Assembly (NCBI GenBank): GCA_038258395.1
Contig: JBBSPX010000001.1
Span: 1 to 61,912 of the forward strand
DNA length: 61,912 nucleotides
Origin: Gemmatimonadales bacterium
Lineage (GTDB): Bacteria; Gemmatimonadota; Gemmatimonadetes; Gemmatimonadales; GWC2-71-9
Reading direction: 5' to 3'
Below, in pieces: positions 9,471 through 48,486 of this stretch. The notes under the pieces were generated by a model. It was not told where the DNA came from and made no database searches. It saw nothing but the letters and a program-made list of their open reading frames with translations. Position 1 is the first letter of the stretch. Every line of letters begins with the position of its first letter. The position numbers and the translations under genes are program-made.

Positions 9471-9488
9471 CCTGAGGGGACAATATGG

Positions 9489-9504
9489 GGCCGGTTTTCC
9501 GGCC
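9489..9504 (+). terminator. Short hairpin after the decarboxylase gene
   Basis: 'ggccgg tttt ccggcc', 19 nt after the stop. Confidence 0.35.
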
Positions 9505-9610
9505 ACCCTTGCCGGGCGGGACTTTGGGTCCTGTCAGACGAAGGCGCCACTCTGGTGAAAAACCGGGGCGGCGCCTTTGTGCATTTCCGGAACATTGCCG
9601 GGGAGGAAGA

Positions 9611-12660: not shown

Positions 12661-13379
12661 GCACCATGGGACGGATCCTGCTTGCCGACGATGAGACCGT
12701 CTTCGCCGAAGCGACGGCGGACCTGTTGCGGCGCGAGGGGTACGAGGTTGACACCGTCGGTGATGCGCCGGCAGCGATCGCGGCCGCCGAGACGAGCGAC
12801 TACGATCTCGTCATCAGCGACCTCGAGATGCCCGGCAACGACGATCTTGCCCTCCTCAGGCGCCTGTCCGAGAGTCGTGGTGGCCTGCCGGTCATCGTGG
12901 TGACGGGGTACCCATCGACACGATCGGCGATGGTCTGCATCGACTTGCCCGTCGCGGCGTACCTCACGAAGCCGATCGACTTCGGGACACTTCGTGACAA
13001 GAGTGTCGAGGCAATCCGCCGTTACCGTGCGTGGCAGGCGATGCGGCAAAGCGAGGCGCGTGCCGCCGAGTGGCGTAACGAATTGTCGACGCTCGCCGAC
13101 GCGACCCCGGGAGGGGCCGGCGTCGATTCGTTTCTGGCCCTCACCCTTCGGAATGTGATGGGCTCGATCACGGACTTGCAGCAGATCGGTCAGGCAGCGA
13201 TCATCGGCGCGCCCCGCAACGCCCACGCCTGCCAGATCATCAACTGCCCGCGCGGTGCACAGCTGACGCAGGCGATCAAGGAGACGGTCGACGTCCTCGA
13301 GAGCACCAAGGGTTCGTTCAAGTCAAAGGCGCTGGGCGACTTGCGCCACAAGCTCGAACTCCTGCTGGCTGTCAGTTGA
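12657..13379 (+). CDS. Response regulator: receiver domain plus an uncharacterised ~110-aa C-terminal domain
   Basis: ATGA overlap with the upstream kinase gene. Receiver motifs 'ILLADDE', 'DLVISDLEMPGNDD' and 'YLTKP'. I do not recognise the C-terminal half ('...ACQIINCPRGAQLTQAIKETVDVLESTKG...') as a DNA-binding or enzymatic output domain. Confidence 0.8.
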   Translation: MSTMGRILLADDETVFAEATADLLRREGYEVDTVGDAPAAIAAAETSDYDLVISDLEMPGNDDLALLRRLSESRGGLPVIVVTGYPSTRSAMVCIDLPVAAYLTKPIDFGTLRDKSVEAIRRYRAWQAMRQSEARAAEWRNELSTLADATPGGAGVDSFLALTLRNVMGSITDLQQIGQAAIIGAPRNAHACQIINCPRGAQLTQAIKETVDVLESTKGSFKSKALGDLRHKLELLLAVS

Positions 13380-33087: not shown

Positions 33088-34927
33088 GGTCGGGGTCGCC
33101 AGCCTGCTTCTTGTCGTGGCCGATATGCAGAGCGTTCTTCGCCTTCTGGGCCCCTTCGGCCACGAGGGCCTTGGCAGATGCCTTGACCACGTCCCAGCCG
33201 TCGGGATCGCCCTTCAGGAGAGCAAGGGCGGTGTCCTTGGCGTACTCCGCCGAGATATGCGGCGGCAGTGGCGGGACGTCCTTGTCGGTATGGAAGTCCA
33301 GCAGGGTGACCCCCTGGTAGGCGAATGCCTTATCCCACGCAGCGCCGACGTCCTCGGCCCGGGTGACCTTGATCCCCTTGAACCCGAACACCTCGGCGTA
33401 GGCCGCGTAGTCCATCGTCTGCACGTCCTGCGAGCCGGTCCACCGCGGGTTGGCATCCTCGGTACGCATCTCCCACGACACCTGGGTCAGATCGTTGTTG
33501 TGAAGCACCATGATGATGAACTGCGGATTCTCCCACTCGTTCATGTACTTCTTGATGGTGATCAGCTCGTTCATCCCCAACATCTGAAACGCGCCATCTC
33601 CGATGGTACAGATCACCGGGCGTTCCGAGAACGCGAGTTTCGCGGCAACCGCGTAGGGCATCGCCGCCAACATCGTCGCGAGCCGTCCGGACAAGTCACC
33701 CATCATGCCGTGTCGCAGCCGAATGTGGTGACCGTACCAGTCGGCCGTCGAGCCAGCATCGCAGGTGATGATCGCATCCTGGGGAAGACGCTCGTTCAAT
33801 TCGTAGTAGACGAGCCGCGGACTGATCGGATCAGCCTCGACGTGGGCGAGTTCCACCATGACGCGTTCCCAGTCCTCCATCCCCGCAGCGATCTCCTGCT
33901 GCCAACCCAGATCGTCTTGCTGATCGAGGTAGGGAATGAGTGCCGCAAGCGTCGCCTTGACGTCACCCCAGATATTCAGTTCCATCGGGTACCGCACGCT
34001 CAGGTGTCCCGGGTTCAAGTCGACCTGGATGCCGCGCGCCTGACCAGTCTCCGGCAGGAAGTTCGAGTAGGGGTAGTTGGTACCGAGCATCAGCAGCGTG
34101 TCGCACTCCTGCATCATCCGATAGCTCGGCATCGTGCCGAGCAGTCCGAGTTGCTGCGTGTGGAACGGCACCTCGGAGGAGATGACCTGCTTGCCCCTGA
34201 GGGTGGTGATGATCCCGGCCCCAGTCTTCCTGGCCACCGCCAGTACCTCCTCGGTCGCGCCGTTGGCACCGTGGCCGACGAGGAGGGCAACCTTGCGGCC
34301 GTCATTGAGGATCTGAGCCGCCCGCTTGATCTCGTCCTCGGGTGGGCGGAGCTGAGTCGCAGGCCCTCCGACGCCACTCCGCGACACCCATTGCTGCCGT
34401 ATCGGTTCTTCCATTTCCATCGCCTGGACGTCGTGCGGGAGGATGATGACGGTGGGTTGCAACCGTGTCCTGGCGATCCGGAAGGCGCGGTCGACGACGA
34501 CCTGCGCCTGCATTGGCGACACGACCGTCTGCACATAGGCGGCAACATCCGCGAAGACGCGTTCGAGGTTGTTCTCCTGTTGAAACGCGCTCCCGAGCGA
34601 ATCGAGGCCTTGCTGCCCCACGATGGCCACAACGGGTTGGTTGTCCATCATCGCGTCGTACAGGCCATTCAACATGTGGAACGCGCCCGGACTCGAGGTG
34701 GCCACGCAGACACCGAATTCGCCAGTGAACTTGGCGTGCGCCGTGGCCATCAGGGCGCAGATCTCCTCGTGGGTCGGCCGGATGTACATGAGCGGCAGGC
34801 CCTCCCGATCGGCCCTCCCGAGCGCCCCGTCAAAGGCGCCGATGCCGTCGCCGGGAAAGCCGAACACCCGGGTGACACCCCAGTCGAGCAACCGCTTGAT
34901 GACAAAATCGCTGACAGTATCTGACAT
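33068..34927 (-). CDS. Thiamine-diphosphate enzyme of the pyruvate oxidase / PoxB / acetolactate-synthase-like family
   Basis: 'VFGFPGDGIGAFDGAL', 'CVATSSPGAFHMLNGLYDA' and the TPP-binding 'GDGAFQMLGMNELITI...NN' motif. Confidence 0.9.
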   Translation of the reverse strand: MSDTVSDFVIKRLLDWGVTRVFGFPGDGIGAFDGALGRADREGLPLMYIRPTHEEICALMATAHAKFTGEFGVCVATSSPGAFHMLNGLYDAMMDNQPVVAIVGQQGLDSLGSAFQQENNLERVFADVAAYVQTVVSPMQAQVVVDRAFRIARTRLQPTVIILPHDVQAMEMEEPIRQQWVSRSGVGGPATQLRPPEDEIKRAAQILNDGRKVALLVGHGANGATEEVLAVARKTGAGIITTLRGKQVISSEVPFHTQQLGLLGTMPSYRMMQECDTLLMLGTNYPYSNFLPETGQARGIQVDLNPGHLSVRYPMELNIWGDVKATLAALIPYLDQQDDLGWQQEIAAGMEDWERVMVELAHVEADPISPRLVYYELNERLPQDAIITCDAGSTADWYGHHIRLRHGMMGDLSGRLATMLAAMPYAVAAKLAFSERPVICTIGDGAFQMLGMNELITIKKYMNEWENPQFIIMVLHNNDLTQVSWEMRTEDANPRWTGSQDVQTMDYAAYAEVFGFKGIKVTRAEDVGAAWDKAFAYQGVTLLDFHTDKDVPPLPPHISAEYAKDTALALLKGDPDGWDVVKASAKALVAEGAQKAKNALHIGHDKKQAGDPDHDHRGD

Positions 34928-34932
34928 GGGTT

Positions 34933-35322
34933 CTACTCCTGACTCTCTGAATACGCGATGGTGCTGAGCAATGCGAGTTCAGCCTGTCTGGAGTCCAATC
35001 GTGTGTGTTGGATCACCACCGGCACGCTCGCGATGAAGACGCTTGCATAGCCGGTGGCCCTCGGAACCGGTTCCGGAGTGACCAGGTCATTGAAGCGCAT
35101 ATGAATGGTCCGCCGCGCTGGAACGGTGAACTCGTAGGGACCAACCGGCTCACGATCAGTGAAGTAGAGCGTGAGTGCGATGTGGGCATCCTCGTCGGAG
35201 GTGTTCAGGATGCAGGCGGCTTCGTGGCTGACAAGCGCGTGTGCGTCCTGAGCGTCATGACTCCGGTCGGGGATATACCCTTCGGGGATGGCCCAGCATG
35301 TCCGACCCACGGCCTTAGCCAC
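34933..35322 (-). CDS. Sensory-rhodopsin-transducer (ASRT) family protein
   Basis: 'GRTCWAIPEGYIP', 'SHEAACILNTSDEDAHIALTLYF', 'PVGPYEFTVPARRTIHMRFNDL' and 'VVIQHTRLDSRQAELALLSTIAY' are collinear with the ASRT / TM1070 family as I remember it. Confidence 0.85.
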   Translation of the reverse strand: MAKAVGRTCWAIPEGYIPDRSHDAQDAHALVSHEAACILNTSDEDAHIALTLYFTDREPVGPYEFTVPARRTIHMRFNDLVTPEPVPRATGYASVFIASVPVVIQHTRLDSRQAELALLSTIAYSESQE

Positions 35323-36367
35323 GGTGACGCCTCCCCCTGCTCCCCCGAATCACCATGCCGCCGGCCAGGAGCCCACCAGCCACCAACCCGAGAGCAAGAG
35401 TGAGCTTGCCCCTGTTCTCGGTGAGCTGGAGTGCCCGACTGTGATCTGTTGCTCGGTCGTCGAACGATCCGTGGGCCCCGTGATCGATGTCGTCGTCCTG
35501 CGGGTCCCACAGGTTGTGCGGACGGCTCGGGTCGGCGGGCTCGTCGGTCTGTTGGGACGCATAGCCGGTGTTGCCGAGATAGCGATCGAGCAGCCCTGGC
35601 GCGACCTTCTGGCCCAGGATCGCTTCATAGGTCGGGCTGCCCACCCACAGTTCCCGTCGGTCGTGGTCGGCCGCCCAGACAATCGCCTGGGCGGCAACCT
35701 CCGGCTGAAAAATTGGCGGCACCGGTTGCGCCGAGTTTGGCAGGCGGCTCTTGACCCAGCCGAACTGCGGCGTGTTGAGGGCCGGCATGTGCACCACCGT
35801 GATCCCGACTCCGGAGCCGTCGTGGATCAGTTCGCAACGCAACGAATCGGTGAACCCGACGATCGCGTGCTTGGCTGCGCAGTACGCTGCCTGCAATGGG
35901 ATGGAACGATAGGCGAGCGCTGATCCCACCTGGATGATCTTGCCTCGGTCGCGCGGGAGCATGCGCCGCAGCGCGGCGAGCGTGCCGTAGACCACGCCGA
36001 GATAGGTGACCTCGGTCACCCGCTTGAACTCGGCCGGCTCCATCTCCTTGACGGGCGAGAACACCGAGGTCATCGCGTTGTTCACCCAGACGTCGATCGG
36101 GCCGAACTCATTCTCGACCTCTGTGGCGGCGTGCTCCACCGCGTCGGAGTCGGCGACGTCTGTGGGCACCACGATCGCTCTCCCACCTGCCTGTTCGGCG
36201 TCGCGACGAGCGCCTTCGAGTCCGGCCTTCCCCCGAGCGAGCAGGCCGATATGCGCTCCGCGCTCGGCAAAGGCCTTCACCGTCGCCCGTCCCACCCCGG
36301 CGCTGGCGCCGGTGATCACGACAACTTCGGGACCGTCGTGTCCTGCTTCCGCATCTTTCGATGTCAT
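35315..36367 (-). CDS. Short-chain dehydrogenase/reductase with C-terminal membrane anchor
   Basis: 'VVVITGASAGVGRA' Rossmann motif, 'NNAM', catalytic 'YCAAKHA' and a hydrophobic tail 'LALGLVAGGLLAGGMVI'. Confidence 0.9.
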   Translation of the reverse strand: MTSKDAEAGHDGPEVVVITGASAGVGRATVKAFAERGAHIGLLARGKAGLEGARRDAEQAGGRAIVVPTDVADSDAVEHAATEVENEFGPIDVWVNNAMTSVFSPVKEMEPAEFKRVTEVTYLGVVYGTLAALRRMLPRDRGKIIQVGSALAYRSIPLQAAYCAAKHAIVGFTDSLRCELIHDGSGVGITVVHMPALNTPQFGWVKSRLPNSAQPVPPIFQPEVAAQAIVWAADHDRRELWVGSPTYEAILGQKVAPGLLDRYLGNTGYASQQTDEPADPSRPHNLWDPQDDDIDHGAHGSFDDRATDHSRALQLTENRGKLTLALGLVAGGLLAGGMVIRGSRGRRHRG

Positions 36368-36708
36368 GTGTCGCCTCGCGCTACGAACTTGTTGGCGTGC
36401 TCGAGCCCCGCCACTGTACCTCTCCTACGCAGCCCGCATGACGATTGATTCGGCTGGAGGAGCACTGCCGGGACGTCGGAAACCTTGGCAGGCTTCGTGA
36501 CCGGGGAGGTCGATGAGGTCATGCGGGTCGCTCCTCTCGTTCGCGTGCATGCATTCGACGGCTGGGGCGGGGTCGGATGCACGGAAGACTGTGCGAGCGT
36601 GGTGTGTCACGGTACCACGAAAGTGCAATACCATTGAGAGATACGGGCTGTCGGTGAGAGACGCAACTGGCGACCGTCCGGATACGTCACAGGTGCGGCT
36701 TCCGGCGG

Positions 36709-37140
36709 CTATCCCCCCAAGAGCAGGCCATCGACGCTCAGGAACCCTGGGCCAGCGAGCAGCAACCAGATCAGGAGCACGAGGAGCAGGGTCTCCGGCA
36801 GATAGGTCACTTCGCCGAGCCATTCACCGAGGGAGGTCGCCTTCACCGCCGGCAAAAGCGTGGTGATCAGCCCGCCGACCATCACCCCCGAGAGCAGCAC
36901 CGCCGCGACCTGGGTGAACAGGCCAAGCACGAGGGCTATGCCCCCGAGGAACTCGATCCACGACAGCACGGTGGCACTCGCGACAGGAGATGGGAGACCA
37001 GCGGACCGGATCGTCTCCTGCATCTGCTGTCGCTTGGCCGACACGAAGAGCTTGCCGTAGCCGGAGAGGGCGAACATCAGCCCGACGGTGAGCCGCGCAA
37101 GCAACGCAGCTATCCATTCGAAGCGATCAAGAGTGAGCAT
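36709..37140 (-). CDS. DoxX-family membrane protein
   Basis: Track ORF trimmed to ATG 37140. It has four helices, 'RLTVGLMFALSGYGKL' and 'EFLGGIALVLGLFTQVAA', typical of DoxX. Confidence 0.8.
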   Translation of the reverse strand: MLTLDRFEWIAALLARLTVGLMFALSGYGKLFVSAKRQQMQETIRSAGLPSPVASATVLSWIEFLGGIALVLGLFTQVAAVLLSGVMVGGLITTLLPAVKATSLGEWLGEVTYLPETLLLVLLIWLLLAGPGFLSVDGLLLGG

Positions 37141-37251
37141 TGACGATCCTGCTCCTGCATGGGAGGTGCCAATCGGGTTGTCCCGGCGTCTGGGCACCGC
37201 GGCAGCCGGTGGCTGCATCAGTGAAGCACTCAGGACCCGTGCTGTCGTGCA

Positions 37252-37265
37252 ATTCTGAACAGAAT
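37252..37265. promoter_or_regulatory. AT-rich perfect palindrome ATTCTG-AA-CAGAAT (candidate operator)
   Basis: A 6+2+6 perfect inverted repeat in the 299-nt divergent region between DoxX and the hybrid kinase. It stands out against the GC-rich background. Confidence 0.3.
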
Positions 37266-37439
37266 CAAACACGGCTTCGGTGATCATTGCAGGAGAGTCG
37301 CAGATCGTCAAACCCGGTGACCCGCCTCGTCTCGGCTGACCACCTGGGAGGGCGGATCCGTGGTGCACAACCAGTTATCATCCACTGAGGGCTTCGGGGC
37401 AATCGTGGACTGCGATCGGGGCTCCGCCATCGACTTCCG

Positions 37440-40331
37440 ATGGCGAAGGCTCTTCAATTGCTCAGTGACGAAGGATCCCTCGTGCCCAACCCACCAGACG
37501 ACGACGCGCCCCGGCCACAGGGAGATGTCTCGGCCTTGGATACTGCCCACGAGTCGCTCGACCACGCCGCCAACATCCTGGCCACGCTTCGGGAGCCGTT
37601 CCTCATCCTCGACGGTGAACTCCGCGTCATCTCGGCAAACCGGCAATTCTACCAGACGTTCCGCACCACCCCGGAGGCGACGGAGGGTCGGCTGGTCTAC
37701 CAGCTGGGAGACGGGCAGTGGGATATCCCGGCCCTCAGGGTTGCGCTCGACGAGGTGCTCGCCATTGATCATCCCGTCCTCGACTCCGAGGTCCTGCATC
37801 TCTTCGCGGGTCTGGGTCAGAAGTGCATGGTGCTCAATGCACGGCGCATCCGTACACCGGGTAACCCCGCCGAGCTGATCCTGTTGGCGATCGAGGACGC
37901 GACGGAACGTCGGCGGGCGGTGACGCTGATTGAGCAGGAGGCGCTGCTCTCGGGACTCATTGCCCGGGGAGAGCCCACCACTCGATGCCTCGAGGCGCTC
38001 TGTCTGGCGATCGAGCTGGTCGATCCGGAGGTCCGCGTCTGTATCCTTCGGACAGATCGGACCGGCACGCGGTTCGCATCGGTGATCGCGCCACGGTTCC
38101 CCGAGCTGACGACGTTTCTGACATGCGCCCCGATCGAAGTGGGGCAGCTCGGCTCCTACGCCGCGGCGATCGTCAGTGGCGAACCAGTGGCCGTCCCCGA
38201 CGTGGCCAGGCAGACAGAGTGGGCTGAGGCATGGCGGGAAGCATGCCTGAAGGCCAATATCCGCGCAGCACTCTTCGTTCCGGTGGCTGCGGGGGGCCCA
38301 CGTGCAGAGGCCAGCGTGGTGCTCTGCTTCGACGTTTCGAAGGAACCCACAGACTCCGACCGCCAGATCGCCAGTATGGCCGATCGGGCCGTCGCGACGC
38401 TGCTCCTTCGTGACCTCCTTCGGGCGACCGAGCGCCGACGCCGGCTGGCACTCGATTCGGCCGAGCTGGGGTCGTGGCATCTCGGTCTGGATACGATGGA
38501 CCTCGTCACCGACGAGCGCTTCCGGTCGATCTTCAGCAACACGGACGAGTTCCTCACCTACGACCGCGGGATCGATTGCATCCATCCCGATGATCGTGAC
38601 CGGGTGCTCGCTGCCATCGAGGCGGCCGTTCAGACCGACGACCTCGAGCCCCACGCATGCGAGTTTCGCGTAGTGCATCCCGACGGCTCGACCCGCTGGG
38701 TGTTCGCGAAGGGTCGCAAGAACGTGCGTGAGAACCCTGATGAGGGAACACGGGGCACCCTCGATGGCACGATCGTTGACGTCACGGAGCGGTTCGAGAC
38801 AGGCCGTCGCCTGCAGGTGTCCGAACAGCGCTATCGGCGACTCTTCGAGTCGGCCCGCGACGGGATCCTGATTCTCGACGCAGCCAGCATGCGCATCGAG
38901 GATGCCAACCCGTACCTGTGCGAGTTGCTCGGCTATTCGTGGGCAGAGTTCGTCGGCAAGGAACTCTGGGAGATCGGGATCTTGCCCGACAAGCACGAAA
39001 GTCAGGCCGCCGTCGAGACGCTACGAGCCACCGGCTACCTTCGATATGAGGACCTCCCGCTCGAATCGCGGAGTGGTGAGCAGCGAGAGGTGGAGTTCAT
39101 CTGCAACATCTACCCCGAGGGGGAGCGCGATGTCGCCCAGTGCAACATTCGCGATATCACCGAGCGCAAGGCACTGGACCGACAGGTGGAAGAGCAGGCG
39201 AAGTCACTCGCCGACATGAACCGGCGCAAGGACGAATTCCTTGCCATGCTCTCGCACGAGTTGCGCAATCCGATGGCCCCGATCTTCAATGCCCTCACCC
39301 TGCTGGAGCAGGAGAACCACCCCAATGCGCTCCAGCGCGAGGCCCAGGCCGTCATCGGGCGTCAGATCCGTCACCTCTCGCGGTTGACCGATGACCTGCT
39401 CGAGATCTCGCGCGTCACGACGGGGCGCATCAAGCTGCACCTGGAGCGCGTCGACCTGCGTGGGATCGTGGGACTCGCGGTGGAGCGGGTGGAGTCGGTC
39501 GTCACGCGACGATCACAGACGATCACCCTGTCGTTGCCCGACGCGCCGGCCTGGATCAACGCCGACGTGACACGCCTGGAGCAGGTCGTGGGCAACCTGC
39601 TCGCGAACGCGTCGAAGTACAGCGGTCGCGACGGTCGAATCTGGTTGTCGCTGGAAGTGGAAGCGATGCACGCCATACTCCGTGTCCGGGATGACGGCAT
39701 CGGCATCGGCGCGGCCATGCTCCCGCAGGTCTTCGATCTCTTCTCGCAAGCCGACAAGGCGCTCGACCGTGCCGATGGTGGCTTGGGAATCGGGTTGGCA
39801 CTCGTCAAGAGCCTGGTCGAACTGCACGGGGGCACGGCAACAGCCTCGAGTGAAGGGATCGGCCAGGGCAGCGAGTTCGTGGTCAGGTTGCCGATGCGTC
39901 CGGCGTCGAGCCCATCGGACATGCTCGCCGCTCTGCCGGCTCCGTCCGATCGGGGGAGCGCCCACCGCATCCTCATCATCGAGGACAACGCGGACGCAGC
40001 CAGCATGCTGATGCTGCTGCTCGAATCCTGGGGCCATGAAGTGTACGTGGCTCATGACGGTCCCGAAGCGCTGGTGCGGGCGCAGACGTTCAAGCCGGAA
40101 CTGGTGCTGCTCGACATCGGCTTGCCTGGGATGGATGGCTATGCCGTCGCCCGTCGCATTCGGGAACTCCCAGACCTCGGCCACGTCCGAGTGGCCGCGA
40201 TCACTGGCTATGGACAGGAATCCGACCGTCAACTTTCCCTCGCAGCCGGATTCGATGCCCATCTCGTGAAACCGGTCGACATCGACGCGCTCGCAGAGTT
40301 GATCAGCCCCGCCGCGCGGCCGGTCGCCTGA
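37440..40331 (+). CDS. Hybrid sensor histidine kinase (multiple PAS, GAF-like, HisKA, HATPase, C-terminal receiver)
   Basis: PAS blocks 'FLILDGELRVISANRQFYQTF' and 'GILILDAASMRIEDANPYLCELLGY'. H-box 'FLAMLSHELRNPMAPI', G-box 'GGLGIGLALVKSLVELHGG'. Receiver 'RILIIEDNADAA...LLDIGLPGMDG...HLVKP'. Confidence 0.9.
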   Translation: MAKALQLLSDEGSLVPNPPDDDAPRPQGDVSALDTAHESLDHAANILATLREPFLILDGELRVISANRQFYQTFRTTPEATEGRLVYQLGDGQWDIPALRVALDEVLAIDHPVLDSEVLHLFAGLGQKCMVLNARRIRTPGNPAELILLAIEDATERRRAVTLIEQEALLSGLIARGEPTTRCLEALCLAIELVDPEVRVCILRTDRTGTRFASVIAPRFPELTTFLTCAPIEVGQLGSYAAAIVSGEPVAVPDVARQTEWAEAWREACLKANIRAALFVPVAAGGPRAEASVVLCFDVSKEPTDSDRQIASMADRAVATLLLRDLLRATERRRRLALDSAELGSWHLGLDTMDLVTDERFRSIFSNTDEFLTYDRGIDCIHPDDRDRVLAAIEAAVQTDDLEPHACEFRVVHPDGSTRWVFAKGRKNVRENPDEGTRGTLDGTIVDVTERFETGRRLQVSEQRYRRLFESARDGILILDAASMRIEDANPYLCELLGYSWAEFVGKELWEIGILPDKHESQAAVETLRATGYLRYEDLPLESRSGEQREVEFICNIYPEGERDVAQCNIRDITERKALDRQVEEQAKSLADMNRRKDEFLAMLSHELRNPMAPIFNALTLLEQENHPNALQREAQAVIGRQIRHLSRLTDDLLEISRVTTGRIKLHLERVDLRGIVGLAVERVESVVTRRSQTITLSLPDAPAWINADVTRLEQVVGNLLANASKYSGRDGRIWLSLEVEAMHAILRVRDDGIGIGAAMLPQVFDLFSQADKALDRADGGLGIGLALVKSLVELHGGTATASSEGIGQGSEFVVRLPMRPASSPSDMLAALPAPSDRGSAHRILIIEDNADAASMLMLLLESWGHEVYVAHDGPEALVRAQTFKPELVLLDIGLPGMDGYAVARRIRELPDLGHVRVAAITGYGQESDRQLSLAAGFDAHLVKPVDIDALAELISPAARPVA

Positions 40332-40402
40332 ACACCCTGCAGAGCCATGTCGCCGCGCACCTGCGCCACACCGCGCCTGAGATCGTCAACCGGTGGGTAT
40401 CG

Positions 40403-41488
40403 GTGCTCACCGCGCGGCTCGAGGTCGCTCCGAAGCGGACCCTGCCCGGCGACGCGATCCTCGATCTCATGCCTGGCATCCTCGTTGCGGTTGCTGACTT
40501 CCTCGACGGGAAGATCGACGTCCCCATCGATGCCCATGTGCGCACAAACCTTGGCCACCTCGCGGACCTCCGTCGCAAGCAGGGCTGGGGCGCGCCCGAG
40601 GTCATCGCCGAGTTCGGCCTGCTGGGCCACCTGGTGAGCGACGAGGTCGTGGCAGCGATCCAGCACTATCAGGGAGAAGCGCCCCACGCCGATGTCGCAC
40701 GTCTCACGGCCAAGGCCATGGAGACCATTCATCAACTGGGCGTCGCCACGACCATGCGATTTCGGATCTGGGACGTTCGCGATGCGGAGGAGCGTGCAGT
40801 TCTACTCGATACCTACACGGCGATACTGTCCCACGAGCTCGCCTCGCGGCTCGGTGCTGCCGAGACGGCCCTGCAATTGATCCTGCGGGAGGGCGAACGG
40901 CTCTCCGAAGAGCGGTTGCGTCGATTGCATGAATTGACACTCCAGTCCATCCAGAGTGGCTCGGCCACGATGCGGGGCGTGCACGCACTCTTCGCGTCGC
41001 GCGGTCCGAGCTCAACGCCAAGTTCCAGCCGTTTCCCTCTGGCGTCCCTGGTGCGAGACATCGTGCACCAGGTGCGCACCGGCGCAGTGGCACGGGGCAT
41101 CCAGATCGAGGTGGTTCAAGATGGTGCGGACATCGCGGTCGACGCCGAGCGCTTCCCGCTCGCGCTCTACAATCTGGTGAACAACGCGGTCCGACATCAC
41201 GATATACCCGAGGGCCGTGGCACCGTGTGGGTCGAGGTGTCCGGCCACAACGACGAGATTCTCGTGACCGTGCGGGACGATGGGCCCGGCCTCGGCGACG
41301 CCGCGCGCGCCCACCTCTTCAGCCCGGAGATCCGAGAACCATCGGTCGAACGCGCCGGACTCGGTCTGGCGATCGCCTGGGAGGCGATCCGGCAAATGGA
41401 CGGCAGTCTGAGCGTCGATCCACCCGACGGCCGCGGGACAACCTTTCGGATCAGGGTCCCGGTAGCGGGGGAGTCCGCAGGAACCTGA
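40403..41488 (+). CDS. Soluble histidine kinase with RsbRD_N-like N-terminal domain
   Basis: H-box 'AILSHELASRLGAAETAL', N-box 'ALYNLVNNAVRH', G-boxes 'DDGPGLG' and 'GLGLAIAWEAIRQMDGSLSV'. GTG 40403 is the first canonical start, but protein-like in-frame sequence continues upstream (see findings). Confidence 0.85.
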   Translation: MLTARLEVAPKRTLPGDAILDLMPGILVAVADFLDGKIDVPIDAHVRTNLGHLADLRRKQGWGAPEVIAEFGLLGHLVSDEVVAAIQHYQGEAPHADVARLTAKAMETIHQLGVATTMRFRIWDVRDAEERAVLLDTYTAILSHELASRLGAAETALQLILREGERLSEERLRRLHELTLQSIQSGSATMRGVHALFASRGPSSTPSSSRFPLASLVRDIVHQVRTGAVARGIQIEVVQDGADIAVDAERFPLALYNLVNNAVRHHDIPEGRGTVWVEVSGHNDEILVTVRDDGPGLGDAARAHLFSPEIREPSVERAGLGLAIAWEAIRQMDGSLSVDPPDGRGTTFRIRVPVAGESAGT

Positions 41489-41503
41489 CTCGCAGTCCCT
41501 CGT

Positions 41504-42898
41504 TCAGATGCCGTATTTCCTGCGCCGACGCCAGAGCGTCGATGGGGCGACTTCCAGCACTTGTGCGGCCTCCTCCACCGAACCGACCGTCTCGATCACG
41601 TGGCGGATGTAGCGGGCCTCCATCCCCTCGAGCGAGATCAACTCGTCGGGGGCATGCCCCAGGGCACCGTTCGATGCTTCCGAACGAGGCAGCGACTGGA
41701 CCCCGATCCGTGAGCCAGGGGCGAGGATCACGGCACGCTCCACCGCGTTCTGGAGCTCGCGCACGTTCCCCGGCCATGGCAGTTGTTGCAGGTGCTCACG
41801 CGCCTCGTCCGTGAACGCGAGTCCGGCCAGACCATGCCGATTGGCGTAGAACGTGAGGAAGGAGTCCGCCAACGCCAGAATGTCCTCGCGCCGCTGCCGG
41901 AGTGGCGGCAGTTCGAGTCGAATCACGTTGAGACGGTAGAAGAGATCCTCCCGGAACCGGCCTTCGCGGACTTCCCGCTCCAGATTGGCATTGGTTGCGG
42001 CGATCACGCGCACGTCGACCTGACGCGGTTTGGGATCCCCGACCCGTTCATACTCGCGATCCTGGAGGAGCCGGAGCAGGCGGGACTGGATCTGCATCGA
42101 CATCTCTCCCACCTCGTCGAGGAAGAGGGTGCCGCCGCCGGCGAACTCCACCTTGCCGATCTTCGCCTGCACCGCGCCGGTGAACGCGCCCTTCACATGC
42201 CCGAAGAGTTCACTGCCCAGAAGCTCCGGTGAGAGCGATGGACAGCTGACGACGGCAAACGCCCCGTCGGCACGCTTGCTCCATCGATGCATCGCGCGCG
42301 CGAGGACCCCCTTGCCCGTCCCGCTCTCGCCGGTCAGGAGCACCGTGGCATCGGTCTTCGCCGCCGAGTGTGCTGCTGCCAGGAGGTTGGCCATCTCGGG
42401 ATGCGCACTCTCCAGCAGTGGGGCGTGCCAGTCGGCGCGCTCCCGATCCTCGAGGGTGGCGAGGCGACGGACCAGGGCCCGATGCTCCGACACGCGTGCC
42501 GTGAGCACCTCGAGTTCGGCCGGACTGACCGGCTTGGAGATATAGTCGAATGCCCCACGGCGCATGGCCTCGACCGCGGAGGCCACCGTAGCGTATGCGG
42601 TCATCAGCACGACCTGCGTGGTCGCATCGGCCGCGAGCAATTCCGGCAGGAGATCCAACCCGGAGTGGTCATGCAGGCGCAGATCGAGCAGGACGAGATC
42701 GAAATGGCGCGCCGCAATCTGCCGCCGGGCCTCCTCGACCGTCGCCGCCGCGGTCACCGTGTGGCCCCGCGGCTCGAGACACGCGGCAAGAGTCTCCCGT
42801 ACGAGTGGCTCGTCATCGATAGTGAGCACGGTAAGGCTGGCGGCCTGCAGTGGGCCGTCAGGTGGAGTCGATCGTCTCAGGCTCTCGCTCATGGCCAT
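41504..42898 (-). CDS. Sigma-54-dependent response regulator (NtrC-family bEBP)
   Basis: Receiver 'VLTIDDEPLV...LVLLDLRLHDHSG', Walker A 'GESGTGKG', intact 'GAFTGA' loop and C-terminal Fis-type HTH 'AAQVLEVAPSTLWRRRRKYGI'. Start trimmed to ATG 42898 (alternative 42892). Confidence 0.9.
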   Translation of the reverse strand: MAMSESLRRSTPPDGPLQAASLTVLTIDDEPLVRETLAACLEPRGHTVTAAATVEEARRQIAARHFDLVLLDLRLHDHSGLDLLPELLAADATTQVVLMTAYATVASAVEAMRRGAFDYISKPVSPAELEVLTARVSEHRALVRRLATLEDRERADWHAPLLESAHPEMANLLAAAHSAAKTDATVLLTGESGTGKGVLARAMHRWSKRADGAFAVVSCPSLSPELLGSELFGHVKGAFTGAVQAKIGKVEFAGGGTLFLDEVGEMSMQIQSRLLRLLQDREYERVGDPKPRQVDVRVIAATNANLEREVREGRFREDLFYRLNVIRLELPPLRQRREDILALADSFLTFYANRHGLAGLAFTDEAREHLQQLPWPGNVRELQNAVERAVILAPGSRIGVQSLPRSEASNGALGHAPDELISLEGMEARYIRHVIETVGSVEEAAQVLEVAPSTLWRRRRKYGI

Positions 42899-43159
42899 CA
42901 GGCATCCGTGTGGGATGGGACAAGGTACTGGCTCGGTTATCCGAGCTCGCCCACAAGCATAACCCGAGATCCTCCGCCGGGTCGGTGCCCCAGGCCACCC
43001 GTCGTCGACAGGACCACCCTGATCCCGCCGAGCGAGGCCCAACCATCGGTCATCTGGCGCTCAATTGACACACGACTGGCGAGCCAGAACCACGGCGCCA
43101 CATGGGGCCAGCGCCCGGCATCGCCCGCGGGACGCGGTCTTCTCGGGGGCCGCCCCCTC

Positions 43160-43173
43160 GGCACGGCAGTTGC
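43160..43173 (+). promoter_or_regulatory. Sigma-54 (-24/-12) promoter 'GGCACG gcag TTGC'
   Basis: 'ctcGGCACGgcagTTGCcct' has the GG-N10-GC spacing and matches TGGCACG-N4-TTGC at all core positions except the first T. It lies 85 nt upstream of ATG 43258, in the intergenic region next to a GAFTGA-bearing activator gene. Confidence 0.6.
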
Positions 43174-43257
43174 CCTTCAGCAGGTACGGATGGCCCCTCG
43201 GAGACTCCCCGCCGATCTGGCCTTGCCTTCTGTCACAGAGCCACGGAGTTCCATCTC

Positions 43258-43827
43258 ATGACCTGCAATCCTGTGCTTGACCTGGTGATCTACCAGCTTC
43301 GCAACCTCTACAGCGCCGAGATCCAGTTCCAGTTCGCCATGCCGACGATCGTCGAGAGCGCGCGCACTGATCGGCTGGCACGGGCCATCGAGTACGATCG
43401 ACTGGAGTCGGGGGTACGCCTGGAGCGTCTCGAGGCAAGCTGTGCGCATTTCGCTGCCTCGCACAGTGGCGAGCGCTGCCGCGGCATGGAGGGCCTGCTC
43501 GAGGAGCTGCACACCGGCCTGCTGAACCGAGCGGCCGGCGTCGCCGATGACTCCGCCCTGAGGGCCGACTGCCGCTTGGTCTACCAGTTCAAACATGCCA
43601 TGTACACGAATCTGATCGCGCTGTGTCGAGGGATTGGCGAGCGAACGGTCGCGCGCACGCTCGAGCACAACATGGCAGCAGAGGAGGAGCTGATCGTCCT
43701 CCTCGACCATATCGACCGGCACCAGGGCTACCGCGACTCGTACGCCGACCCCACCTCGGGTGCAGCGTATCCACAACTCTACCTCGTCCCCGACGATGCC
43801 GTCGAGGCGAGAGCGTCGAGGAGCTGA
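43258..43827 (+). CDS. DUF892 (YciE/YciF-like) ferritin-like protein, copy B1 (diverged)
   Basis: Track ORF trimmed to ATG 43258 ('ggag' upstream). 'LRNLYSAEIQ', 'CRGMEGLLEEL' and 'LEHNMAAEEELI' align with the canonical copy. The helix-3 block reads 'CRLVYQFKHAMY' instead of 'QRVEHYEMAGY'. Confidence 0.75.
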   Translation: MTCNPVLDLVIYQLRNLYSAEIQFQFAMPTIVESARTDRLARAIEYDRLESGVRLERLEASCAHFAASHSGERCRGMEGLLEELHTGLLNRAAGVADDSALRADCRLVYQFKHAMYTNLIALCRGIGERTVARTLEHNMAAEEELIVLLDHIDRHQGYRDSYADPTSGAAYPQLYLVPDDAVEARASRS

Positions 43828-43829
43828 AG

Positions 43830-44474
43830 ATGACTTTCCAGACTCCGCAAGACCTGCTCGGACATCAGCTCCGCATACTGTATGGCGCCGAGCTGCAGCT
43901 GCTGGCGGCCATGCCATGCCTCATCGAGACGGTGCGCGACCTGCGATTCGCGAACGCACTTGCGGAGCATCGCCTCGCCACCGAAGGCCATGTCACACGG
44001 ATGGAGACCTGCCTCGCGGTGTTGGAGATGCCGCTGGCGTGCGAATTCAGCCATGGGATGCATGGACTGCTGGTGGAAATGCAGGGAGGGGGCGTCAGCA
44101 ATGGTTCGAGGATGCCCGGGCATTATGTACTGGCAAGCCGGTTCCAACTGCTCGAGCGGTTCGAGCTCGCACTGTATGCGAGTGCCTGTACCCTTGCCCG
44201 TGCACTCGATGAAATGCTGATCGCCCACCTCCTCGACCATACGATGTATGAGGAGCGCCGGGCCGAGGCAATCTGGCTGGACATCGCGCTTGATGAGCTC
44301 GGCGCAGACGCTTTCGTCTCGCCTATGCTGGTCGATACCGTATCGGTTCCGACACCACGCCTGACTGGATGGGGAGGCCTTGCGACTCGTGTGGCCTCAC
44401 CCGTCATGCACGGTCTGGCCCCCGTGCTGTCCGGGCGGCAGGACGACACGGGCCTCCGTCTGCTCTCTCGCTGA
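43830..44474 (+). CDS. DUF892-like protein, copy B2 (diverged)
   Basis: ATG 43830 lies 2 nt after the B1 stop, with SD 'gaggag'. Blocks are '[10 protein letters not shown]', '[11 protein letters not shown]', '[12 protein letters not shown]' and '[12 protein letters not shown]'. Confidence 0.75.
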
Positions 44475-44481
44475 GGTTCGT

Positions 44482-44646
44482 ATGCTACGCTGGGCAATCC
44501 TGTTCTTCGTGCTGGCGATCATCGCCGGTGTGTTCGGTTTCGGTGGCGTAGCCACGGCGTCGGCGGGAATCGCCAAGACCCTCTTCGTGGTCTTCTTGAT
44601 CATCTTCGTCGTCACACTGGTCCTCGGGCGCGGGCGCGGTGGTTGA
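44482..44646 (+). CDS. DUF1328 (YtjA-like) small membrane protein
   Basis: The 54-aa '[44 protein letters not shown]' is near-identical in pattern to the copy at 55699..55872. Confidence 0.85.
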
Positions 44647-44691
44647 TTGGGAATCTGACGTCAATACCGTCAGCACGCGCAGGCTGCGATC

Positions 44692-45210
44692 ATGACACTC
44701 GACCTGCACCGGCAGCTACTCACGCTCGGGTTGAGCGAGCTTCACGGCACGGAGTCGCTGTTGCTCGGGGAACTGCCCCTGCTCATCCGGAAGTCACACA
44801 GTGCTCGCCTGGCGAACGCGCTCGCGGCTCTTCGGTTGCAGACCGAGGTCCAGCTCCTCCGTCTTGAGGCCTGCCTGAATTGCGGCCGCAATGCGGTTCG
44901 GCCGGTTCCGAGTCTCGGAATGCGGGGTCTGATCCGCGAGATGCGCACCGATGCACGCGTCGCAGGCCACGCCGACGTGCAGGACGCCGCACTCCTGGGC
45001 AATGGCCGCCGAGTCGTGCAGTGGCAACTCGGGATGTATGCGAACACCCGTCGGGTGGCCCATGCCCTGGATGAGTCGGCCATCGTCCGCTGGCTCGATC
45101 AGGGTATCGCTGAGGAACAACGCGCCGACGTGATCCTGACCCGGATCATGGCCGAAGAGGTGGGCCCCGCCGCCTGTCGCGCCACCACGGCGTTCACCGC
45201 GACTACATGA
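44692..45210 (+). CDS. DUF892-like protein, copy B3 (most diverged)
   Basis: 'LSELHGTESL', 'SLGMRGLIREM', 'RRVVQWQLGMY' and 'QGIAEEQRAD' are in the same order and spacing as the DUF892 blocks, but several conserved Glu/His positions are replaced. Confidence 0.65.
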   Translation: MTLDLHRQLLTLGLSELHGTESLLLGELPLLIRKSHSARLANALAALRLQTEVQLLRLEACLNCGRNAVRPVPSLGMRGLIREMRTDARVAGHADVQDAALLGNGRRVVQWQLGMYANTRRVAHALDESAIVRWLDQGIAEEQRADVILTRIMAEEVGPAACRATTAFTATT

Positions 45211-45230
45211 TCGGCATAGCTGGCGTGGCA

Positions 45231-45279
45231 CATCCTTCATCCTTCATCCTTCATCCTTCATCCTTCATCCTTAATCCTT
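45231..45279. repeat. Heptamer tandem repeat CATCCTT x6 + AATCCTT (AAGGATG on the minus strand)
   Basis: A perfect head-to-tail array, read directly. It contains the TGA stop (45251-45253) and the last 9 codons of the minus-strand fusion gene, and begins 21 nt after the stop of the plus-strand gene 44692..45210. Confidence 0.95.
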
Positions 45280-48200
45280 CCAACACCATATCAAGAGTCC
45301 CCACCAAGAGGTCTGCCTCGGCGCGACCAAACACCATCGGCGGCTTGATCTTGAGCACATTGTCGGCCGGACCATCGGTCGAGAGTAACACCCCAGCCTC
45401 GCGCATGGCGTTGATCACCTGCCCCGCCTCCGCGGTCGCCGGCGCCCTGGTCTCGCGGTCAGAAACCAGATCAACTCCGACAAACAGGCCGGCGCCTCGG
45501 ACATCACCGATCAGGGGAGTTCGCTCCGCCAGCTGGCGCAGCCGACCGATGAGATACTCCCCGGTGTCCAGCGCGTGCCGCTGCAGCTCCTCCAGCTCGA
45601 TCACATCGAGCACCGCCATACCGACCGCCGCCGATACCGGATTCCCGCCGAAGGACGAGAAGAATTCCATCCCGTTGGCAAACGCCTCGGCAATCGCAGG
45701 CGTGGTGATCACCGCGGCCATCGGATGCCCATTGCCGATCGGTTTGCCGATCGTGACGATGTCGGGCACCACATCCTGCAGCTCATGCGCCCAGAAGTGT
45801 GAGCCGACCCGGCCGAAGCCGGTCTGCACCTCATCGACAATCACGAGGCCACCGGCTCGCCGCACCCGACGCGCCGCCTCGCCGAGATACCCGTCCGGAT
45901 ACACCACCTGGCCGCCACAGCCCGAGATCGCCTCGGCGATGAATGCCGCGGGACCGGAGCCGGACCCGCTCCTCTCTTCGATCGCCGCGATGCACTGATC
46001 GATCGAGTCGGCATATGAGAGCGCCGCCGAGTGATCGGTGCCGCGGAACGGGCCACGATAGGGGTCAGGCAGCGTGGCCACCTGGACATGCGCCACCTGC
46101 CCCGAGCCGCCCGCACGCTTGAACTTGTATGGGCTCACCTCGATCAGCGCAGACGTGTGCCCGTGGTAGCCCCAATCGAGCGTAATCATGTCGCGTCGAC
46201 CGGTGACGGTGCGCGCCATCCGGAGCGCAAGCTCATTGGCTTCGGAGCCGGAACACACCATGTACACGACCGAGAGCGGACTCGGAAAGGTTCGGCCCAG
46301 CCGCTCCGCATACTCCACGAGGGTGTCGTGGAGATAGCGGGTATTGGTGTTGAGGATCGCCGCCTGTTGTGCGAGTGCCTCGACCACGTGCGGGTGCGCG
46401 TGTCCAACGTGACAAATATTGTTGACGCAATCGAGGTACGCGCGACCAGTGTGATCATGGAGCCACGTGCCGTGACCGCGCACCATCTTGAGCTTGTGGC
46501 GGTAACTGGTCGAGAGCGAGGGTCCGATGACGGCCTCGCGACGCGACAGTAGCATGGGGGGGGGCGATGCATCGACCGCGAAACTCTCCGGGGCAAGTTT
46601 CAGCACGAGGTTCGGATCCGGCGCAATCTGTCGCCACACGGGCCAGAGACTCGGATGGCCGACGCCGGGAAAATTGCCTGCGAAGCCGAGCAGGTCGGTG
46701 ATGAGCTGGAAGTGAAGGTGCGGCGCCCAGCCGCCATTCACATCGTCGGCTCCGATCGATCCGATGCGTTGCCCTGCCACGACCCGCCCCCCAACCGTGA
46801 GCAGGTCGAGTGACTCCCGCGCGAGGTGGCCATACAAGGTGTGGAACAGCGGACCACCATCACCGGCCCGATGTTCCAGGATCACCGTCGGACCGTAGTC
46901 GAGTGGCATGGCGTTGTCGACGACGCTCACCACGGTCCCGGCGTAGGGCGCATGGAGCGGCGTCCCCGCAGGCACGAAGAGGTCGAGCCCCAGGTGCTGC
47001 GACCGCGGTTCGGCGGAGATCGGATCACGGAACTGCGCGGTGGTATACACATCGCGCACTTCGCCGTAATTCCCGATCGCCATCGTCGCACCAGCGGCGC
47101 CCATCCGTGCCGTGAGCCAGTCCCAGTACGCCGCGGGATCGGCACCGTACTCCATCCCGGGTGCGCCCTCGACCAGCGACACCACCATGCGACCGGCCCG
47201 CTCGAGATCGAAATCGAAGAATGAGCAGGCCTTCGGCGCGTCGCCCTCGAGCCACTGAACCACTGCATCGTGAGTGCCTACCGCAGGCAAACCGGCCGCG
47301 TGACGCGCCACCGCGGCGAGCAGCGCGGGGTTGCACCGATCAAGGCGATCAAGCAACTGCAACGCGGATGTTTGGGAGACACGCAGATAGGCGTTGTCCG
47401 GAAACTGGATCGCGCGGTGTGACGAGATGCAGACGCTGCCGATAAGCCGCATGGCAACGAGATCGAAGAGCACCTCGAGTTCGTCGGTCTCGAGTGGGAA
47501 CTCCGAGACATATCCTGCAATCACGTCAGCGGCCGACGCCGCCAGATCGTCCACATCCATCAGCGCGTAGGCCAGTACCACCGCGAGCTCGTTTACCTGC
47601 CGGCCGAAGGTGAGATCCCCGAAGTCGATCATCCCCGTGACGATCGTGCCCTGCTCGTCGACGAGCAGGTTGTTGTCGTTCAGGTCCTGATGGACCACCG
47701 CACCCCGGAGCGTCGCTAGACGGGGCAGGACTCGGGAGTGATAGCGCGCAACATGGCGCCTCACCATCGCCTGATGCGCAGGATCGGCGATGTCGCGCAC
47801 CCATGGTTCGAGCGCCTGCACCTCGTCGAGACTCCAGATGAAGCCGGGACGATGCGCCGCCGGATGACCGAATCCCTGTAGTGCTCGCGACAACCTCCCG
47901 ACGCATTCGCCGAGGCTCTGCAACACTACTGGTGATGCATCGATGCTCGAGTAGAGGCGTCCAGGCAGATAGCTGAGCAGGCGCACAACATGTGGTGTGC
48001 CATCGTGATGCCATGTCACGCAGGCATCGCCGCTGAGCGTGCGAATCACCCGCGGTACGCCGAGCGCTGGTGCCACCGAGGCCAGGTGCGCGAAGACGGC
48101 TTCCTGCAACTGGATGAGTTGCATGTCCTCGAGCGCGTTCCCGATCTTGAGGACATACCCACCGTCGTCGCTGCTGACGTGGAAGTTCTGGTCGCGTTCG

Positions 48201-48313
48201 CTGACCAGTGGAGCTAGCGCACCCGTCAGACCAAAGTCGCGAGACAGGAGCGTCTCCACCTCCGCCTCGGTGAACGCGGGCTTCTGGTGGTCGAACACCG
48301 TCATGCCGGGCAT
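45251..48313 (-). CDS. Tri-domain fusion: APH-type kinase (hydroxylysine-kinase-like) + M23 peptidase + class-III aminotransferase-fold (phospho-lyase-like)
   Basis: Kinase blocks are 'HQDLNDNNLLVD' and 'IDFGDL'. The M23 domain has 'HLGLDLFVPAGTPL' and 'GWAPHLHFQL'. The PLP fold has 'CSGSEANE' and the lysine block 'DIVTIGKPIGNGHPMAAV'. Start trimmed to ATG 48313 (alternative 48304); the track extension to 48436 overlaps a better small ORF. Confidence 0.9.
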   Translation of the reverse strand: MPGMTVFDHQKPAFTEAEVETLLSRDFGLTGALAPLVSERDQNFHVSSDDGGYVLKIGNALEDMQLIQLQEAVFAHLASVAPALGVPRVIRTLSGDACVTWHHDGTPHVVRLLSYLPGRLYSSIDASPVVLQSLGECVGRLSRALQGFGHPAAHRPGFIWSLDEVQALEPWVRDIADPAHQAMVRRHVARYHSRVLPRLATLRGAVVHQDLNDNNLLVDEQGTIVTGMIDFGDLTFGRQVNELAVVLAYALMDVDDLAASAADVIAGYVSEFPLETDELEVLFDLVAMRLIGSVCISSHRAIQFPDNAYLRVSQTSALQLLDRLDRCNPALLAAVARHAAGLPAVGTHDAVVQWLEGDAPKACSFFDFDLERAGRMVVSLVEGAPGMEYGADPAAYWDWLTARMGAAGATMAIGNYGEVRDVYTTAQFRDPISAEPRSQHLGLDLFVPAGTPLHAPYAGTVVSVVDNAMPLDYGPTVILEHRAGDGGPLFHTLYGHLARESLDLLTVGGRVVAGQRIGSIGADDVNGGWAPHLHFQLITDLLGFAGNFPGVGHPSLWPVWRQIAPDPNLVLKLAPESFAVDASPPPMLLSRREAVIGPSLSTSYRHKLKMVRGHGTWLHDHTGRAYLDCVNNICHVGHAHPHVVEALAQQAAILNTNTRYLHDTLVEYAERLGRTFPSPLSVVYMVCSGSEANELALRMARTVTGRRDMITLDWGYHGHTSALIEVSPYKFKRAGGSGQVAHVQVATLPDPYRGPFRGTDHSAALSYADSIDQCIAAIEERSGSGSGPAAFIAEAISGCGGQVVYPDGYLGEAARRVRRAGGLVIVDEVQTGFGRVGSHFWAHELQDVVPDIVTIGKPIGNGHPMAAVITTPAIAEAFANGMEFFSSFGGNPVSAAVGMAVLDVIELEELQRHALDTGEYLIGRLRQLAERTPLIGDVRGAGLFVGVDLVSDRETRAPATAEAGQVINAMREAGVLLSTDGPADNVLKIKPPMVFGRAEADLLVGTLDMVLEGLRMKDEG

Positions 48314-48327
48314 CGGTGGGACCTGAC

Positions 48328-48486
48328 TCAGAAGTTGCGCAGCATGAACCAGCGCGCCCACCAGACACCGGCGGCGGTGCCGACCGCGCTCAGCATCACG
48401 GATCCCCAGATCCCGAATACCGACCCCACCCACCACCCGATTGCACCCCCGACCGTCGAGCCGATCAGCCAGAGCAGGCGGGTCAT
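48328..48486 (-). CDS. 52-aa glycine-zipper membrane micro-protein (below the ORF-track size cut-off)
   Basis: My own translation is 'MTRLLWLIGSTVGGAIGWWVGSVFGIWGSVMLSAVGTAAGVWWARWFMLRNF*'. It has high GC3 and an ATGA overlap with the stop of the upstream gene 48483..48995, and ends 14 nt before the fusion-gene start. Confidence 0.5.
   Translation of the reverse strand: MTRLLWLIGSTVGGAIGWWVGSVFGIWGSVMLSAVGTAAGVWWARWFMLRNF

Follow-up and report, generated by a model that had tools for sequence, protein, structure and literature searches.

A putative sigma-54 two-component module and its enhancer-like element upstream of DUF892/DUF1328 stress genes in Gemmatimonadota

The DUF892 and DUF1328 families comprise stress proteins that are widespread but little understood in their function. 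In enterobacteria, yciE and yciF are RpoS-dependent, and the yciGFE and ytjA genes of the RpoS regulon, together with the ferroxidase YciF of Salmonella, represent the same two effector families as the locus described here. This locus comes from Gemmatimonadota, a phylum common in soil, and occupies positions 37440–45210 of a contig from a metagenome-assembled genome (MAG); the whole contig of 61,912 bp was analysed and is termed the window. It contains two histidine kinase genes (HK1 and HK2), a convergent gene for an NtrC-family activator, or bacterial enhancer-binding protein (bEBP), and a divergent operon, B1-B2-DUF1328-B3, in which B1, B2 and B3 are DUF892 paralogues. The locus differs from yciGFE/ytjA in its predicted sigma factor and in having DUF1328 inside the operon.

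A precedent for an NtrC-type regulator of such genes is XibR (XC_3760) of Xanthomonas campestris, an NtrC-family protein with the GAFTGA motif that positively regulates the yciE-yciF-XC_3754 cluster located a few genes away (PMC5130282). XibR is described as an orphan regulator that binds ferric iron and has a regulon of ~400 genes for motility and iron; deletion of the yciE-yciF-XC_3754 cluster lowers intracellular iron (PMC5130282). The likeness to our locus is at the level of family and motif, an NtrC-type GAFTGA regulator over nearby ferritin-like YciE/YciF genes. In contrast to XibR, the window activator has an RsbRD_N-type kinase as its partner, and both a -24/-12 site and a candidate enhancer can be identified. 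We found no literature linking DUF892 or DUF1328 by name with sigma-54, and the XibR study surfaced via the yciE/yciF gene names. The original prediction, made from the letters of the window, knew of no sigma-54-controlled DUF892 system; because XibR regulates yciE-yciF-XC_3754, sigma-54-family control of DUF892 genes is not wholly without precedent, although neither direct binding at yciE nor a sigma-54 promoter was reported for XibR (PMC5130282). New here are the subfamily of the activator and its partner kinase, together with the enhancer-like element and a wider predicted regulon in Gemmatimonadota.

The module also resembles the NtrB/NtrC, ZraS/ZraR and AtoS/AtoC systems in its REC-AAA+-HTH_8 activator, kinase partner, candidate dyad-like upstream enhancer and GG-N10-GC promoter, and resembles NtrB/NtrC-type systems in the apparent autoregulation seen in two related loci, L084 and L093 (loci collected for comparison are numbered with an L). 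It differs from these systems in the sensor domain, the enhancer sequence and the target genes, and the activator scores below their equivalog cut-offs. With the RsbR/sigma-B stressosome of Bacillus it would share a sensor domain of the RsbRD_N family that acts on a regulon of stress type (CsbD, DUF892-like and DJ-1/PfpI-type genes); here, however, the RsbRD_N-type domain is fused to a histidine kinase that would signal to sigma-54 via the activator, and the module has no STAS domain, RsbS/T or partner switching. No description of stress regulation in Gemmatimonadota was found in the literature searched, nor one of a lineage-wide Gemmatimonadota sigma-54 stress regulon in the searchable literature.

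We propose, with a probability of about 0.68, that the locus encodes a sigma-54 two-component module which acts through a 30-bp enhancer and is part of a regulon common to related Gemmatimonadota. The region upstream of the operon is best read as a sigma-54 promoter that the neighbouring NtrC-type activator would drive. The 359-nt spacer between the divergent activator and B1 genes contains a -24/-12 element, GGCACGgcagTTGC (43160–43173, + strand). Compared with the consensus TGGCACG-N4-TTGCW, in which 10 nt separate the GG at -24 from the GC at -12, CGGCACGGCAGTTGCC matches 10 of 12 positions, all core positions included. The match GGCACGGCAGTTGC is the sole one in the 62-kb window, where ~0.25 are expected on both strands; the chance of a match in this spacer and strand is roughly 7e-4. 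The motif and its spacing had been noted in the original prediction and were confirmed here, with a small shift in distance: B1 starts at 43258 and not at 43259, and the element lies 84 nt before the B1 ATG instead of 85 nt.

The sole close relative of the locus is L002 (JBDTNH010000035.1), from a Gemmatimonadota MAG with ~86% nucleotide identity. It has the same order of HK1, HK2, convergent activator and divergent B1-B2-DUF1328-B3, followed by a convergent APH-M23-aminotransferase gene; the left flank differs. Between the window and L002 the module genes have synonymous divergence (dS) of 0.19–0.39 and nonsynonymous to synonymous ratios (dN/dS) of 0.15–0.33, indicating purifying selection. 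Against this divergence, and a mean column identity of 79% in the activator–B1 spacer, the -24/-12 element lies within a 24-bp block, CCTCGGCACGGCAGTTGCCCTTCA, that is identical in L002 and L003, which together count as one independent relative. Another block of 28 bp, GCGCCCGGCATCGCCCGCGGGACGCGGT (43111–43138), located between the enhancer and the promoter, is also perfectly conserved in L002, which has a net +10 bp indel (one helical turn) between this block and the -24 element. A second protein may sit on the 28-bp block, or the DNA may bend there. A scan for sigma-70-like promoters and terminators found nothing in the spacer or after B3.

The enhancer-like element came to light only when DNA upstream of sigma-54-like sites was compared across genomes; no conserved dyad emerged when the spacer was searched automatically for inverted repeats. 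The element is bipartite, 30 bp long, and has the consensus TCGTGCR-N13-TGA(A/C)ACACGA. Upstream of the operon it reads TCGGTCA-N13-TGACACACGA (43046–43075; 27.1 bits by position weight matrix, PWM) and ends 85 nt upstream of the -24 GG. Both half-sites are kept in L002, where the 13-nt spacer differs. A left copy, TCGTGCA-N13-TCAAACACGG (37245–37274; 24.7 bits), has its core 75 nt from a sigma-54-like -24/-12 site, TGGCACCTCCCATGCA (37156–37171, - strand), with 10 of 12 consensus positions and GG/GC in register. This site faces the gene for a DoxX membrane protein (36709–37140, - strand; Pfam DoxX, E 9e-17), a candidate second target in its 143-aa form, with the start at 37140 taken from the gene call of locus L001. 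Left of HK1, L002 keeps a 27.2-bit element (3520–3553) despite its rearranged left flank without the DoxX operon.

To place these copies against a background, we used as controls the 79 generic NtrC-type loci from other phyla (~50% identity) that were returned, along with L002, by a GTDB scan with the whole activator. Related loci totalling 128 kb contain six copies of the 10-mer [TG]GA[AC]ACACGA, each upstream of GG-N10-GC, compared with 0.8 copies per 100 kb in the control loci, and in all copies the second half-site TCG(T/G)(G/T)C(A/G) is found upstream at the fixed 13-nt spacing. The PWM, built from six sites and reported at scores of at least 21 bits, finds 18 sites in 228 kb of loci encoding activator orthologues; the 1.17 Mb of controls contain none, their best score being 20.7 bits. 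Twelve of the 18 sites are outside the training set, and one of these (L002, 9776) is the orthologue of a site used for training. The element is usually located 40–120 nt (range 40–170) upstream of the GG-N10-GC site. Within 200 nt, 12 of the 18 elements have an outward-facing sigma-54-like site with a score of 9 or more, versus 11% of random positions; at a score of at least 10 the respective figures are 7 of 18 and 2.7%.

As an independent test, metagenome loci were retrieved by the helix-turn-helix (HTH) peptide of the activator alone. Loci with 67–79% HTH identity yielded five more elements, and those with 55% or less yielded none. The genes behind the elements retrieved in this way encode DUF1328 (L093, L094, L095), DJ-1/PfpI (L093), DUF1206 (L098) and a membrane phosphoesterase (L094). 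In addition, DUF1328 has a variant element in L096, and in L098 it follows CGGCACGGCCGTTGCA directly after the activator gene. The orthologues encoded in the 228 kb of family loci are 55–88% identical to the window activator and have a near-identical HTH recognition region; the named activator relatives with at least 55% identity are all from Gemmatimonadota.

The genes behind an element and a GG-N10-GC site include DUF1328, DUF892, DoxX, MscS, DJ-1/PfpI, DUF1206, DUF4403 and a thiamine pyrophosphate (TPP)-enzyme operon. The commonest among the relatives is DUF1328 (L084, L093, L094, L095, L096, L098 and L106). It heads small operons behind the enhancer/promoter pair in L084 (2666–4644), L093 (8537–10132) and L106 (3113–3523); in L084 and L106 it is joined by a 74-aa membrane protein, conserved between these two loci, and in L093 it is a lone DUF1328 open reading frame (ORF). 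Because the DUF1328 unit continues into the activator gene in L084 and L093, the sequences suggest positive autoregulation of the activator there. The PWM sites of L084 lie upstream of MscS, of the operon of DUF1328, the 74-aa protein and the regulator, and of a canonical DUF892; in L085 one site precedes a canonical DUF892 and another a 62-aa/Rho_N pair, and DoxX of L085 is also behind an enhancer and a GG-N10-GC site. In L086 an enhancer and CGGCATGTCGCTTGCT are located upstream of the TPP gene, and orthologous TPP operons adjoin the HK2/activator pairs of L086 and L108/109. The L106 locus (GCA_041390105.1, Gemmatimonadota) has four elements, one of which precedes GGGCACGCGCACTGCA and the DUF1328-74aa genes. 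Its 32.7-bit element (11410–11443), the strongest match of all, is situated between the activator 3' end and the convergent REC-HK2 operon, with no promoter near. Recurrent neighbours in these loci are CsbD, BON-MscS, an AI-2E transporter, DUF4403, DoxX, baeRF_family10, single REC proteins and a TPP/MR_MLE/FAD-oxidase operon, which is also found left of DoxX in the window. Judging from these gene families, the regulon (DUF1328, DUF892, DoxX, MscS, DJ-1/PfpI and DUF1206, with CsbD and BON-MscS nearby) would resemble general, osmotic and oxidative stress regulons.

The activator gene (41504–42898, - strand) encodes REC, Sigma54_activat, AAA_lid_14 and HTH_8 domains, all above the Pfam cut-offs (Sigma54_activat PF00158, 221 bits, E 1e-65), and ends in VAPSTLWRRRRKYGI. 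Its translation has both the Walker A motif GESGTGKG and an intact GAFTGA, in agreement with the original reading of a response regulator of this type. No named equivalog (AtoC, NtrC, ZraR, AlgB and others) is reached in NCBIfam, the best being AtoC with 397 bits against a cut-off of 714. HK2 (40403–41488, + strand) is a soluble histidine kinase with a Pfam HATPase_c domain, the H-box SHELASRLG and a probable, N-terminally shortened RsbRD_N-type sensor. The convergent HK2/activator pair is kept in nine loci (the window, L002, L085, L086, L091, L092, L106, L109 and L110), with a small REC gene in between in L106; activators beside HK2 homologues are 58–65% identical to that of the window and have the same terminal VAPSTLWRRRRKYGI helix. 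This conservation is consistent with HK2 being the cognate kinase of the activator.

HK1 (37440–40331, + strand) is a hybrid histidine kinase in which Pfam finds PAS_4, a weak GAF, PAS_3, PAS_8/9, HisKA, HATPase_c and REC. It was found in the window and L002 only; L106 has a partly similar hybrid kinase 9 kb off, with 34% identity to HK1 across the catalytic and REC portion. HK1 therefore looks like an input added in this lineage. Of the two kinases in the relay proposed initially, HK2 accompanies the activator in nine loci, whereas HK1 is confined to the window and its close relative. Two domain calls of the original prediction, GAF in HK1 and RsbRD_N in HK2, are weakly supported: GAF scores 19.3 bits (E 0.002), under the gathering cut-off of 22.4, and RsbRD_N (PF14361) matches neither HK2 itself nor its L002 orthologue, only full-length homologues with 41–46% identity (E 1e-7 to 8e-5). 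The first 26–33 residues of the RsbRD_N domain are missing from HK2 of the window and L002 and present in all more distant homologues. The N-terminal shortening of HK2 coincides with HK1 lying directly upstream, and the HK1 input and the shortened HK2 sensor may be connected. A sigma-54 candidate before HK1, AGGCTCTTCAATTGCT at 37447, was rejected because it is not kept in L002.

In the mechanism that we propose, the cytoplasmic kinase HK2 would sense through an RsbRD_N-type domain like those of stressosomes and phosphorylate the adjacent activator, and the PAS-rich hybrid kinase HK1 would probably be a second input in this lineage. The activator would bind the bipartite enhancer TCGTGCR-N13-TGA(A/C)ACACGA and, once bound, use ATP to open sigma-54 promoters. 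One enhancer/promoter pair of the window would drive B1-B2-DUF1328-B3; the second, weaker pair would probably drive DoxX and possibly the genes for SDR, ASRT and TPP enzymes too, whose co-transcription with DoxX is presumed. The sequences show the genes and motifs, with their conservation and co-occurrence; binding of the enhancer by the activator, the kinase that feeds it, the signal and the resulting transcription are all predicted.

Several observations weigh against a shared sigma-54 regulon of this kind. The exact operon is present in one close relative only, and among 5.8 billion proteins no further B1 relative above ~31% identity was found. Adjacency of the activator and the DUF892 operon recurs in L002; neither DUF892 nor DUF1328 is within 8 kb in any of the 79 generic activator loci. 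The PWM training sites were picked by eye, several partner promoters are weak (score 8), and three partner sites read GGAAC at -24, which also resembles the -35 box of extracytoplasmic function (ECF) sigma factors; the GGAAC-type sites of the canonical DUF892 genes in L084 and L085 may be ECF promoters. The DoxX-side promoter is only 16 nt from the DoxX ATG, which leaves a leader of ~5 nt, and the left enhancer in L002 has no GG-N10-GC site with a score of 8 or more directed at the gene on either side. L108 and L110 share the same HTH yet have only weak variants of the element (21 kb each). Finally, a search for the RpoN box in the window and the related loci collected found no rpoN. From the intact GAFTGA activator and the phylum we infer that rpoN is present in the source genome, and sigma-54 is encoded by Gemmatimonas aurantiaca (Francke 2011, Additional file 1).

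The alternatives differ in which part of the proposed module they give up. The signalling genes could form a private circuit, in which HK1, HK2 and the activator are dedicated to the DUF892/DUF1328 operon, as assumed in the original prediction, and the other copies of the element are non-functional. The operon and the activator are indeed divergent neighbours in both genomes that have the operon, and HK1 occurs only with this arrangement. We consider such a dedicated relay unlikely because the enhancer/promoter pair also faces DoxX and, in relatives, many other genes: a second enhancer is found on the DoxX side of the window and left of HK1 in L002, and 16 further sites precede other genes in relatives, with none in controls. 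It is less plausible still that the 30-bp element is bound by another regulator, for example a partner of one of the recurrent single-domain REC proteins or an unlinked factor, with the enhancer of the activator elsewhere, perhaps in the 43111–43138 block. This block is perfectly conserved and closer to the promoter, and the strongest L106 element sits between two convergent 3' ends, both of which would fit. On the other hand, none of the other promoters inspected showed this block, the 30-bp element is confined to loci with this HTH subfamily and disappears where HTH identity is 55% or less, and its distances to GG-N10-GC sites are typical of enhancers.

The -24/-12 match itself could be fortuitous, with the operon expressed from a sigma-70 or ECF-type stress promoter, as are DUF892 genes in other phyla. 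The RpoS-dependence of the enterobacterial yciE/yciF and the GGAAC reading of some partner sites speak for this, but we regard it as very improbable: the window holds no second match, the 24-bp block around this one is perfectly conserved, the spacer has no sigma-70-like site, and enhancers and GG-N10-GC sites co-occur far above chance.

We speculate that the sigma-54 module favoured here could have a wider role, with the HK2/activator pair as the master switch of a sigma-54 general stress response in Gemmatimonadota and the regulated DUF892 expanded to three diverged paralogues, two of them non-catalytic, which may assemble with DUF1328. This extension is tentative, and we think it rather doubtful as a whole. 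If true, it would add to RpoS, SigB and EcfG a fourth way of wiring the general stress response, with an RsbRD_N sensor fused to a kinase and a 30-bp enhancer marking the regulon. The enhancer and promoter signature would let the whole regulon be predicted in any Gemmatimonadota genome, give cultured species such as those of Gemmatimonas or Longimicrobium a concrete genetic test, and show that hallmark general-stress effectors can come under sigma-54, with reuse of an RsbR-type sensor domain in a two-component kinase.

The operon genes all lie on the + strand and were confirmed by Pfam, as were the other three genes of the module; the gene list of the original prediction was borne out, as were its intergenic distances (2, 7 and 45 nt) and the length of the divergent spacer (359 nt). 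The three DUF892 proteins exceed the PF05974 gathering cut-off of 23.7 bits: B1 (43258–43827) with 69 bits, B2 (43830–44474), which has a 55-aa C-terminal tail, with 68 bits, and B3 (44692–45210) with 54.5 bits. The DUF1328 gene (44482–44646) encodes a YtjA-like membrane protein of 54 aa that passes the cut-offs of both Pfam PF07043 (54 bits vs 27) and NCBIfam PRK13682/NF010226 (70 vs 59). The tripling of DUF892 proposed originally is not recent: B1, B2 and B3, 28–33% identical in pairs, are old paralogues, all under purifying selection (dN/dS 0.29–0.33).

B1–B3 align full-length with YciF of Salmonella and Escherichia coli (4ERU, 2GS4), with 23–31% identity to YciF and the other canonical DUF892 proteins aligned. 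Mutation showed that YciF depends on E113, E143 and Q54 to bind iron and to act as a ferroxidase (bioRxiv 10.1101/2023.01.20.524870); we assigned E21, E50, E110 and H47 as further ligand positions from our alignments. B2 retains E21, H47, E110, E113 and E143, with the E..H and ExxE..EE positions, and may bind metal. The di-iron ligand set is degenerate in the two other paralogues, which in contrast to YciF lack E110, E113 and the helix-2 histidine H47, and in B3 also E50. Where YciF has VEHYE, B1 has VYQFK (D47, Y110, K113) and B3 has VVQWQ (L47, Q50, V110, Q113). Judged by these substitutions, B1 and B3 are probably not ferroxidases. A hetero-oligomeric ferritin-like assembly of B1, B2 and B3, as suggested originally, would combine B2 with two paralogues that lack most YciF metal ligands. 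Natural DUF892 paralogues with and without metal ligands could separate the ferroxidase activity from any structural role.

Downstream of DoxX on the same strand, the 33068–36367 region (- strand) contains a 52-aa ORF and the genes for SDR (35315–36367), ASRT (34933–35322) and a TPP enzyme (33068–34927); they are assigned from Pfam and L001 gene calls and are candidates for one transcription unit with DoxX. Convergent with B3 is a 1061-aa fusion of an APH phosphotransferase, an M23 peptidase and a class-III aminotransferase (45251–48436, - strand; NCBIfam PRK06148, 1228 bits), whose position is kept in L002. L001 (Logan SRR13704944) is 99.6% identical to window positions 33258–45183 and resumes at 85% identity from position 48346, skipping the end of B3 and the entire 3.2-kb APH-M23-aminotransferase gene (45183–48346), which points to a chimeric assembly or to a strain with a deletion. 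Within B2, an antisense ORF of 153 aa (43779–44240, - strand) has coding-like GC content at third codon positions (GC3) and beat B2 in a crude GC3 gene caller; it is rejected as an artefact of the codon phase of high-GC DNA because B2 carries the Pfam match.

The window has a fourth, canonical DUF892 gene (9485–10189, E 7e-36; likely start near 9611), located 14 nt, as called, after a pyridoxal phosphate (PLP) decarboxylase gene and followed by genes for a PAS-HisKA-HATPase kinase (10243–12660) and a 240-aa REC protein (12657–13379); the enhancer element was not found there. Two further stress or signalling genes lie in the window: one for a BON-MscS channel (56655–58037, - strand) that shares 52% identity with its counterpart next to the regulon genes of L084, and one for an HD_5 (HD-GYP-like) protein (50666–52183, - strand); the element is absent from both places. 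COX1 and COX3 domains are joined in one 813-aa ORF (19850–22291, - strand) within a cytochrome b/COX2/COX1-3 cluster, and the same cluster also neighbours HK2 in L085.

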